A DNA stretch of 64,000 nucleotides. Source: Peptostreptococcaceae bacterium (GTDB lineage: Bacteria; Bacillota; Clostridia; Peptostreptococcales; Filifactoraceae). This document shows positions 41,651 to 42,524 of the stretch, one piece after another; position 1 is the first letter of the stretch, and each line of letters starts with the position of its first letter. The stretch covers positions 8,601-72,600 of the forward strand of contig JAUNKE010000001.1 of NCBI GenBank assembly GCA_030532905.1. The letters are read 5' to 3'. The translations under genes were made by a program, and so were the position numbers. The notes beneath the pieces were generated by a model, which was not told where the DNA came from, ran no database searches, and saw only the letters and a program-made list of their open reading frames with translations.

Positions 41651-41980
41651 ACTCTTAAAAAACTTCTTTATAGAAGCAAAATTATTATAGGAATAAACGA
41701 ATACCGAAAATCTAAAAAAGCGTAGCAAATTGCTGTGCTTTTTACATAGAAGACAACACTTAAAAAATCTCCCTTGTTCACAACTTCTTGTGATTTGACA
41801 AAATTTGATATACAATATCTAAAAGAGTTTTACCAAAAAATGAACATATACATTTTTAACGCCGTATAAATAAAAAAGCCAGCAAATATTGCAACGATTT
41901 TTTGTATTTAGGCTAATCTCTATTAGAAAGAATAGTTGTCAACAATTTGTATTTTGAATATCCGTTCTATGCTTCCCACT

Positions 41981-42028
41981 TTGTAGGGAACGGTGACCCC
42001 ACCGTTCCGCGACAAACAAAGTTTGTCG
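41981..42028 (+). other. Pair of strong hairpins at the start of the helicase 5' region (GGAACGGTG-ACCC-CACCGTTCC and CGACAAAC-AAA-GTTTGTCG)
   Basis: Both hairpins have perfect 9-bp and 8-bp stems. The first is preceded by ttgtagggaacg, whose reverse complement cgttccctacaa occurs at 42316-42327. Confidence 0.5.
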
Positions 42029-42095
42029 AAACAAAAGACGATGTAAGCAAGATCCAAGTGCTGAATATTTAATTTTTATTTTGGGCTTTGGATTG

Positions 42096-42327
42096 TTCCG
42101 TTCCGATGGAACACAAAGCGGTGAGGTTCTAGATCTAACTAAATTATTGATATGCTAATGAGAGATTCCGTTCCGATGGAACGGCGGAACGAAGAGGTTC
42201 TAGACCTAACCCGATTTTCAAGCAAAGCGATGAAAATCTTTGGTAGGTCACATGCATGGGTTAGCGAGATATACAATGACCGCAGGGAAATTGTATGTCC
42301 GCAACCTACTGCCTTCGTTCCCTACAA
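42096..42327 (+). ncRNA. Structured-RNA-like repeat element, copy 2 (42166-42327), preceded by a 44-nt partial tandem copy of its 5' head (42096-42139)
   Basis: It is about 90% identical to 36133-36288. The closing stem (GGAACGAAG...CTTCGTTCC) differs from copy 1 (GCGGTGG...CCACCGT), yet both pair, and internal hairpins are conserved. Confidence 0.5.
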
Positions 42328-42524
42328 CGAGATAATCAAAGTCTCCATATTCAAAACAAAGTTTAAGCAAAAAAAGCTAGACAAATAAATTTGCAACGAT
42401 TTTTTGCATTTAGACAAGGCAAGGAGCGAAAGCAGGAGGGAGCATATTGTAATATGTGACCGAGTGCTCGAGTGAACTTAACGCAGTATAAATCAAAAAA
42501 GCTAGACAAATTAAGGAGGGAAAA

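Follow-up and report, generated by a model that had tools for sequence, protein, structure and literature searches.

In the 64,000-nt stretch of a Peptostreptococcaceae genome analysed here (GCA_030532905.1, contig JAUNKE010000001.1; the whole stretch is called the window hereafter), a transglutaminase-like gene (39797-41650) is separated by a spacer of 876 nt from a helicase-nuclease gene whose ATG is at 42526. The helicase-nuclease (42526-47364, 1612 aa) contains the domains DUF4011/AAA_11/AAA_12/MTES_1575/DUF3320 and matches the PADLOC candidate system PDC-S37 from end to end (E = 0, 1144 bits), its match to Hhe being partial only. The spacer harbours a structured element of ~160 nt, designated copy B, which an earlier note on this DNA had described as a feature of the helicase-nuclease gene. 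Our analysis confirmed that the element is real, structured and new to the databases searched; it is however not linked to the defence gene. It probably belongs to a hitherto undescribed family of small, non-coding intergenic repeats with a modular structure, which is restricted to one lineage and is of the BOX, REP (repetitive extragenic palindrome) or MITE (miniature inverted-repeat transposable element) kind.

A repeated, structured and modular unit

The window contains a second full copy, copy A, which had been missed in the earlier note. Both copies were aligned by BLAST over 42166-42320 and 36134-36288 (E 1.6e-58), and the 17-nt head TTCCGTTCCGATGGAAC occurs three times in the window where 0.22 occurrences are expected, so that chance is excluded as an explanation for the element. 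Copy A is located directly upstream of the terminator common to the convergent serpin and SelO genes, the 3' half of which, GGTCGGTTTTTT, is conserved in the orthologous locus described below.

The anatomy of the family was derived by aligning eight copies that are full or partial, together with four that have no core, the latter being called minis. Its modules are a hairpin at the 5' side (H), a closing stem of 9 bp, a two-armed core of ~118 nt that is optional, the conserved sequence CTACAA and, in some copies, an A/T-rich tail of ~80 nt. In copy B, H is CCGTTCC-GAT-GGAACGG (42168-42184), the closing stem pairs 42186-42194 with 42313-42321, the core is made up of the arm P2/P3 (42203-42249, including the GATTTTCA/TGAAAATC hairpin at 42213-42238) and the long arm P4 (42254-42312), and CTACAA is found at 42322-42327. 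Both ends of the core are accompanied by a subterminal hairpin at a distance of about 13-14 nt.

The fold that had been proposed for copy B, with H, the closing stem and two internal arms, was borne out: its minimum free energy of -70.4 kcal/mol compares with a shuffle mean of -41.3 (z -6.76), and none of 200 shuffles folds as well. Copy A folds at -65.2 kcal/mol (z -6.1) and reaches a covariance-model score of 193.7 bits. The structure is strand-specific, the plus strand folding better than the minus strand, and the wobble count amounts to 26 G-T versus 13 A-C. In a model of 58 pairs, 90.8% of the cells are paired across the eight copies, a value that falls to 35-45% when the pairing partners are slid. 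Eight pairs are changed on both sides as compared to 3.3 in shuffles (0 of 500 shuffles reach eight); judged from the alignment, the stems are thus kept by compensatory changes. RNAalifold offers an alternative pairing of GGUAGG with CCCUAC, which, with few and closely similar copies at hand, is not separable from the minimum-free-energy arm P2.

The stems vary in a concerted manner. The closing stem exists in two covarying versions, GGAACGAAG/CTTCGTTCC and GGAACGGTG/CACCGTTCC, and the usual H is replaced by TTCCGT-CACT-ACGGAA in locus L005 (assembly GCA_041793335.1) and by a different hairpin, CGACAAAC/GTTTGTCG, in the mini of the window. Minis, which were found in the window and in loci L002 (the spacer upstream of rpoB in the metagenome-assembled genome (MAG) JBGZSM01) and L003, are made up of H, a closing stem that forms a simple hairpin, and CTACAA, often followed by the tail. 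Those of L002 and the window share the junction GGT|C with the full copies in spite of differing stems (GAAGAGG/CTTC versus GGTGGGG/CACC), while the L003 minis are more diverged there. The tail follows the element in L001, L003 and L005. In L002 a mini and a full copy stand in tandem with near-identical 30-nt 5' flanks, yet they carry different stem variants.

Several features that had been listed separately can be understood from this anatomy. The two perfect hairpins reported at 41987-42028, GGAACGGTG-ACCC-CACCGTTCC (41987-42008) and CGACAAAC-AAAG-TTTGTCG (42010-42028), are present and fold together at -25.3 kcal/mol (z -4.9). Read on the minus strand of the window they form an inverted mini, i.e. 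the hairpin CGACAAAC-TTTG-TTTGTCG, then GGAACGGTG-GGGT-CACCGTTCC, then CTACAA. The 44-nt partial duplicate of the head in front of copy B was likewise recovered; it is 82% identical overall to copy B, with 17-nt blocks of 100% and 94% identity, and resembles copy A more closely (89%). In L004, too, a truncated head of similar kind stands in front of the full copy, and 5'-truncated copies also belong to the family. Finally, the 12-nt inverted repeat of 41981-41992 and 42316-42327, which had been likened to the a1/a2 repeats of a retron or the terminal inverted repeats of a MITE, is exact and extends to 41 nt at 73%. It exists because the inverted mini and the full copy share the stem-plus-CTACAA module and hence joins two separate, oppositely oriented family members. 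The likeness to a retron is thereby lost; the guess of a MITE came near the mark.

The element is not coding, since a 1-nt deletion in L002 breaks the only reading frame shared by copies A and B; a small protein was rejected for this reason and for the lack of a ribosome-binding site. The pseudo-peptide of the element found a single match, a miscalled open reading frame (ORF P0001), among 5.8 billion proteins, which pointed to L005. Consensus scans gave no promoter before either window copy and no terminator-like site for the element, the nearest terminator being the one shared by serpin and SelO, which was read by eye 3' of copy A. An outward promoter in the tail was dismissed as well: the tail contains TTGACA, but no -10 box is conserved across copies. 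A tRNA-like origin was considered and rejected, ARAGORN finding nothing in the window.

Distribution of the family

In the GTDB species representatives, an exact 21-mer of the core matches four contigs, which belong to a single MAG, 'Filifactoraceae bacterium D-73_MAG_2' (JBGZSM01). These four loci and one in GCA_041793335.1, the latter (L005) with a more divergent copy, have the element alone in common with the window. Altogether, eight full or partial copies and four minis were found in the ~356 kb examined, all of them intergenic and ~160 nt long when complete. Their neighbours are a serpin gene, the PDC-S37/Hhe-like helicase-nuclease gene, rpoB, an F420-ligase-like gene, a radical-SAM gene and a hemerythrin/PAS gene beside a CRISPR trailer, and nearly all copies are sense to the adjacent gene. 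The suggested count of copies hence did yield further members, in the window and in relatives, but not a constant position 5' of defence genes.

The family is rare in public data. BLAST gave no match to the element in PLSDB plasmids or INPHARED phages, and degenerate patterns of the core and of the tail each had zero matches in JGI metagenomes, with zero matches in IMG/VR also. No copies were present in ~210 kb from relatives with 82-91% identical ProRS, and these ProRS-anchored loci are not syntenic; the transglutaminase-like protein and the ProRS of the window had no exact match on record. That the element is not a known Rfam family, as supposed by eye in the earlier note, holds for the window and for the copies: no Rfam family overlaps either window copy even when the filters were permissive and E values up to 10 were admitted, a Cobalamin riboswitch at 49617-49777 is the sole match of the whole window against Rfam 15 at the gathering threshold, and L003 and L005 gave only weak CRISPR-repeat matches away from the element copies. 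Neither did any omega-RNA, HEARO or IS605-orfB type family of Rfam match the element.

Two of these loci contain other repeats. Positions 1-350 of L005 are occupied by a CRISPR array, the repeats of which have 36 nt (GTTTTAAAACCCATTACTCCGTAAGGAGACGGAAAC) and are degenerate at the terminus. The array ends ~200 nt before the element copy; this proximity is probably coincidental. The rpoB-upstream spacer of L002 shows other local repeats at 880-1100 and 1150-1290, namely AAAAAGTCGGTCG-containing units and a duplicated 'gttttaccttccctctaagga' segment.

An orthologous locus without the element

An ortholog of the helicase-nuclease (84% identical protein) was found on a 66.7-kb contig (L013) which is syntenic with the window in the order serpin, SelO, ProRS, transglutaminase and helicase, with ~90% DNA identity in the genes. 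No element, mini or tail is present in 24.8 kb of L013, and neither of the two sites occupied in the window is occupied there: the serpin-SelO spacer measures 118 nt as compared to 232 nt in the window, and the helicase leader is devoid of the whole block 41913-42353, the native leader sequence picking up again near 42349-42354. Over 15 kb, L013 agrees at every position (100%) with L014 of the assembly GCA_041793335.1, so that the helicase leader of L014 is without the element as well; this assembly has the family elsewhere, at L005. As L013 is empty at both sites and L005 is occupied, the element is subject to turnover by insertion or loss and is not a conserved feature of the leader. By sequence comparison, the family is thus present in both species at different sites, with presence/absence polymorphism at orthologous sites.

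These observations bear on the idea that the element is a dedicated cis-regulatory or retron-like RNA of the defence gene or, as a variant, an invertible promoter segment between the 12-41-nt inverted repeats. It does sit in the long leader of a PADLOC PDC-S37/Hhe-like gene, is probably co-transcribed from a conserved promoter (41788-41816), and a 323-nt segment there is flanked by inverted repeats. The leader of the ortholog however does not contain it, the remaining copies flank unrelated genes, and the inverted repeats are accounted for by two oppositely oriented members of the family. Furthermore, neither reverse transcriptase nor invertase was detected in Pfam scans of most, though not all, window ORFs of at least 90 aa, in agreement with the earlier statement that no reverse transcriptase or transposase adjoins the element. 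This explanation, as a regulator, retron or inverton, is already largely refuted and we regard it as highly improbable.

A more serious alternative is a functional structured RNA module, i.e. a multi-copy small RNA or a domain of untranslated regions that binds a protein or metabolite or acts in mRNA stability or processing, selected at several loci, with minis and truncated copies as products of decay. Support comes from the multi-helix fold (z -6 to -7), the compensatory changes in the closing stem and P4, the maintenance of a hairpin at the H position with three different sequences (CCGTTCC/GGAACGG, TTCCGT/ACGGAA in L005 and CGACAAAC/GTTTGTCG in the window mini), loops and junctions that are conserved even in the 74-83% divergent copies, wobble pairs that favour the plus strand, and the sense orientation of almost all copies. 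On the other hand, the neighbouring genes have no common function, the copies lack a conserved promoter or terminator, full copies are matched in frequency by core-less and truncated ones, and the element is absent from orthologous sites in a close relative, from the ~210 kb of relatives with similar ProRS and from JGI metagenomes and IMG/VR. We therefore consider a selected RNA module unlikely, while giving it appreciable weight.

Organization of the helicase leader

The 876-nt spacer contains, in this order, a terminator, a promoter-like block, the leader repeat c1, the inverted tail plus mini, the truncated head, the full copy, a tail-like remnant, the leader repeats c2 and c3, the ribosome-binding site and the ATG (Table 1). 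With three family members, i.e. inverted mini plus tail, truncated head and full copy, the helicase leader is an insertion hotspot.

Table 1. Repeat copies and accompanying features of the window (positions in the window)
Feature	Position	Strand	Remarks
Full copy A	36134-36295	+	91% identical to copy B; 3' region of the serpin gene (34944-36101)
Long GC-rich hairpin with T run, serpin/SelO shared terminator	36301-36346		Read from the sequence, 3' of copy A
Intrinsic terminator of the upstream transglutaminase-like gene	41710-41747	+	AAAAAAGCGTAGCAA-A-TTGCTGTGCTTTTT; inverted repeat; conserved in L013
Promoter-like block of about 46 nt	41786-41829	+	100% conserved in the ortholog; TTGTGA-N17-TACAAT at 41788-41816
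Leader repeat c1	41856-41912	+	TTAACGCCGTATAAAT-AAAAAAGCCAGCAAAT-ATTGCAACGATTTTTTG; homologous motifs in the L013/L014 leader
Inverted tail (T) module	41913-41995	-	CCCTACAA-AGTGGGAAGCATAGAACGGATATTCAAAATACAAATTGTTGACAACTATTCTTTCTAATAGAGATTAG; 97.6% identical to L001 7807-7889; matches L003 and L005
Inverted mini	41981-42028	-	Two hairpins, then CTACAA; closing stem without the ~118-nt core
Truncated 5' head	42096-42139	+	H, 5' half of the closing stem, GGTTCTAGAYCTAAC; nhmmer E 1e-4
Full copy B	42166-42327	+	Fold -70.4 kcal/mol; covariance-model score 199.9 bits
Degenerate short tail-like remnant	42328-42353	+	Between copy B and native leader; with 42316-42327 the right arm of the 41-nt inverted repeat
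Leader repeat c2	42354-42413	+	Region from ~42370 to the start codon (most of c2) ~90% conserved with L013
Leader repeat c3	42478-42525	+	Runs into the ribosome-binding site AGGAGGG (42514-42520) and the ATG at 42526

The direct repeats of ~45 bp, of which three copies had been reported, are present at 41868-41911, 42370-42413 (86% over 44 nt between these two) and 42478-42514, the last one being related to 41856-41887 and 42370-42389. From comparison with the ortholog they are native leader sequence and separate from the dispersed element, and the element-free leader of the ortholog carries the motif in more copies: the A-rich motif AAAAAAGCTARRCAAAT is found three times in the leader of the window (41872-41888, 42374-42390 and 42497-42512) and about nine times in that of the ortholog (L013 9500-9990), there partly with a period of 24 nt. 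In addition, the last ~160 nt upstream of the helicase ATG are ~90% conserved with L013. The leader repeats were dropped as structured units in their own right, as they fold no better than shuffles (z only -0.9 to -1.4). The AAAAAAGCTARRCAAAT array is native to the leader of this PDC-S37-type gene and might, as one possibility, be a binding array for a protein or of the Hfq type.

The promoter suggested earlier within the first direct repeat, TTGCAA-N17-GCTAAT, is weak: it fails the consensus scan because its -10 hexamer lacks an A at position 2, and this hexamer overlaps the terminal bases of the inserted repeat module. The consensus scan and the conservation in the ortholog point to TTGTGA-N17-TACAAT (41788-41816) as a better candidate. 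With transcription from this promoter, the repeat nest would be part of a leader of ~700 nt, and the full copy would then add a very stable predicted structure ~200 nt upstream of the helicase ribosome-binding site.

Classification and possible mode of spread

The occurrence in multiple copies, the unrelated neighbours, the presence/absence pattern, the modular, truncated and nested forms, the lack of coding capacity and the lack of transcription signals of its own together lead us to classify the element as a small non-autonomous intergenic repeat. Copies would have been dispersed as DNA by an enzyme acting in trans, whose gene lies elsewhere and which would recognise the hairpins, most plausibly in single-stranded DNA. 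Modules might in addition have been exchanged between copies by gene conversion, for which the tandem of mini and full copy in L002 can be cited. As almost every copy is oriented like its neighbouring gene and promoters of their own are lacking, the copies are presumably co-transcribed passively and would fold as stable structures in 5' or 3' untranslated regions. An effect on helicase expression via mRNA stability, processing or a roadblock, if there is any, would be an incidental by-product.

There are however several observations that weigh against this classification. No transposase, Y1/RAYT, TnpB, reverse transcriptase or recombinase was found among the ORFs scanned, which were most window ORFs of at least 90 aa. 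The flanks of four full copies contain no target-site duplications, and there are no terminal inverted repeats besides the internal closing stem, the ends of the element (TTCCGTTCC... and ...CCCTACAA) not being inverted copies of one another. The orthologous intergenic spacers have diverged so far that their alignment did not yield a clean empty site with its boundaries. Only about a dozen copies are known. The core is a multi-helix fold with conserved loops and not a simple palindrome, and the copies are 83-96% identical across genomes, which fits selection for an RNA too. Likewise, the bias towards sense orientation fits a role as RNA as well as strand-biased transposition of single-stranded DNA.

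In its architecture, the closest analogue is BOX of Streptococcus pneumoniae (boxA-boxB(n)-boxC), a modular element in which boxB can be absent, which is confined to close relatives, is co-transcribed and has been judged parasitic (Croucher et al. 2011, PMC3049150). Like BOX, the family described here is a small non-coding intergenic modular repeat with strong predicted RNA structure in which the outer modules pair as the main stem and the internal module can be absent: its 5' and 3' modules form the closing stem and the 118-nt core is optional. Both are restricted to close relatives and without a linked transposase, and the family would be co-transcribed like BOX. The likeness, which is architectural only and taken from the description of BOX, has its limits. 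The core has ~118 nt with two arms of its own and occurs zero times or once but never in tandem, there is an extra 5' hairpin and the CTACAA tag, and the host lineage is Filifactoraceae-like; moreover, BOX is reported with terminal inverted repeats and target-site duplications, neither of which was found here.

As compared to MITEs such as bcr1 of the Bacillus cereus group and the Correia elements (PMC3184786), the family is similarly small (<300 bp), non-coding, multi-copy, dispersed and intergenic, shows insertion polymorphism and would likewise be transcribed into a folded RNA. In contrast to them it has no terminal inverted repeats at its true ends, no target-site duplication and a fold with several branches instead of one long palindrome. 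Retron msr-msd loci resemble the helicase leader in having an inverted repeat pair around a structured non-coding segment near a defence gene, but no RVT domain was detected in the Pfam scans, the inverted repeat stems from two separate copies, and copy A and the copies in L002, L004 and L005 have no bracketing partner.

A further group to be compared are the GTAG REPs, in which an unpaired GTAG tag accompanies a stem of 6-9 bp (up to 13 bp) and which were surveyed in Proteobacteria, Cyanobacteria, Chloroflexi and the PVC superphylum, Firmicutes not being mentioned (Di Nocera et al. 2013, PMC3733652). Read against its own orientation, i.e. on the plus strand of the window, the inverted mini shows exactly this format: TTGTAG is followed by the 9-bp palindrome GGAACGGTG-ACCC-CACCGTTCC (41981-42008), so that the minus strand of the element has a 9-bp-stem hairpin with an adjacent unpaired GTAG. 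The tag is kept in 9 of 11 copies. As in the RAYT-mobilised REPs and REPINs, there are sub-families with alternative complementary stem residues, an extragenic location and a pair in opposite orientation (in the helicase leader). REPs are units of 20-40 nt in high copy number; the minis fit this size but the full copies have 160 nt, with a 118-nt structured insert in the hairpin loop, and the copy density appears low, with three members in 64 kb.

It could thus be suggested that the family consists of GTAG-tagged REPs moved by a RAYT, or of IS200/605-type ends moved by a Y1 transposase, with the 118-nt core as a passenger or an omega-RNA-like guide scaffold that enters or leaves the hairpin loop. 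Apart from the published format of 9-bp stem, 4-nt loop and tag (PMC3733652), this is supported by a second GTAGG on the same strand at the foot of P4, the junction of mini and full copy that is shared by L002 and the window although the stems differ, the subterminal position of the core hairpin at both ends, and the missing target-site duplications, which are expected of single-stranded-DNA transposons. IS200/IS605-derived palindromes and TnpB/IscB omega-RNAs are also strand-specific and hairpin-rich without target-site duplications or terminal inverted repeats, and omega-RNA scaffolds are multi-stem structures of ~120-160 nt with a sharp 3' end. Nevertheless, no Y1 (TnpA), RAYT, TnpB or IscB was found in the ORFs scanned (most window ORFs of at least 90 aa), and the gene tables of the fetched loci, where given, are without Y1, RAYT and TnpB families. 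The 5' flanks share no common target motif, the 3' flank is often the conserved tail instead of a variable guide, no omega-RNA or HEARO-type family of Rfam matched, the survey cited is silent on Firmicutes, and copies are sparse. Taken together, we think that an origin of this kind is rather improbable.

The joining of the L002 and window minis at the full-copy position despite differing stem variants is also the reason to consider the ~118-nt core by itself, as a discrete site-specific mobile or functional RNA unit entering or leaving the loop of a GTAG-tagged REP-like hairpin. We would give such a unit only a slim chance. As one possibility, the core might be the guide or scaffold RNA of a hairpin- or RNA-directed transposition system in an uncultured Filifactoraceae-like lineage; if it proved to be independently mobile or guide-like, interest in the family would rise.

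For the small non-autonomous repeat that we favour, the findings correct a wrong association, as the element is not a regulatory or retron-like partner of the PDC-S37/Hhe-type defence helicase, and they add to a Firmicute lineage a new structured repeat family which combines REP-like GTAG-tagged hairpins with BOX-like modularity. Repeats of this type can confound scans for non-coding RNAs and defence systems, can alter the expression of co-transcribed genes and are useful markers of recent genome dynamics.

Other observations in the window

A helicase-nuclease protein identical to that of the window is contained in the Logan run SRR33674924.

The cobalamin riboswitch mentioned above (49617-49777, plus strand, 75.3 bits) is followed by a terminator-like hairpin near 49820-49866. 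It has no plus-strand gene downstream and points towards the 3' end of an ABC-transporter operon on the minus strand (50036-52238), suggesting that it may control an antisense or non-coding transcript.

A proline reductase cluster, consisting of a PrdR-like sigma-54 activator, Prd subunits, proline racemase and TauE, is located at 14101-23137 of the window. In L007, L011 and L017 this cluster is placed directly beside ProRS; as it is ~23 kb away from ProRS in the window, the intervening region has been rearranged or inserted.

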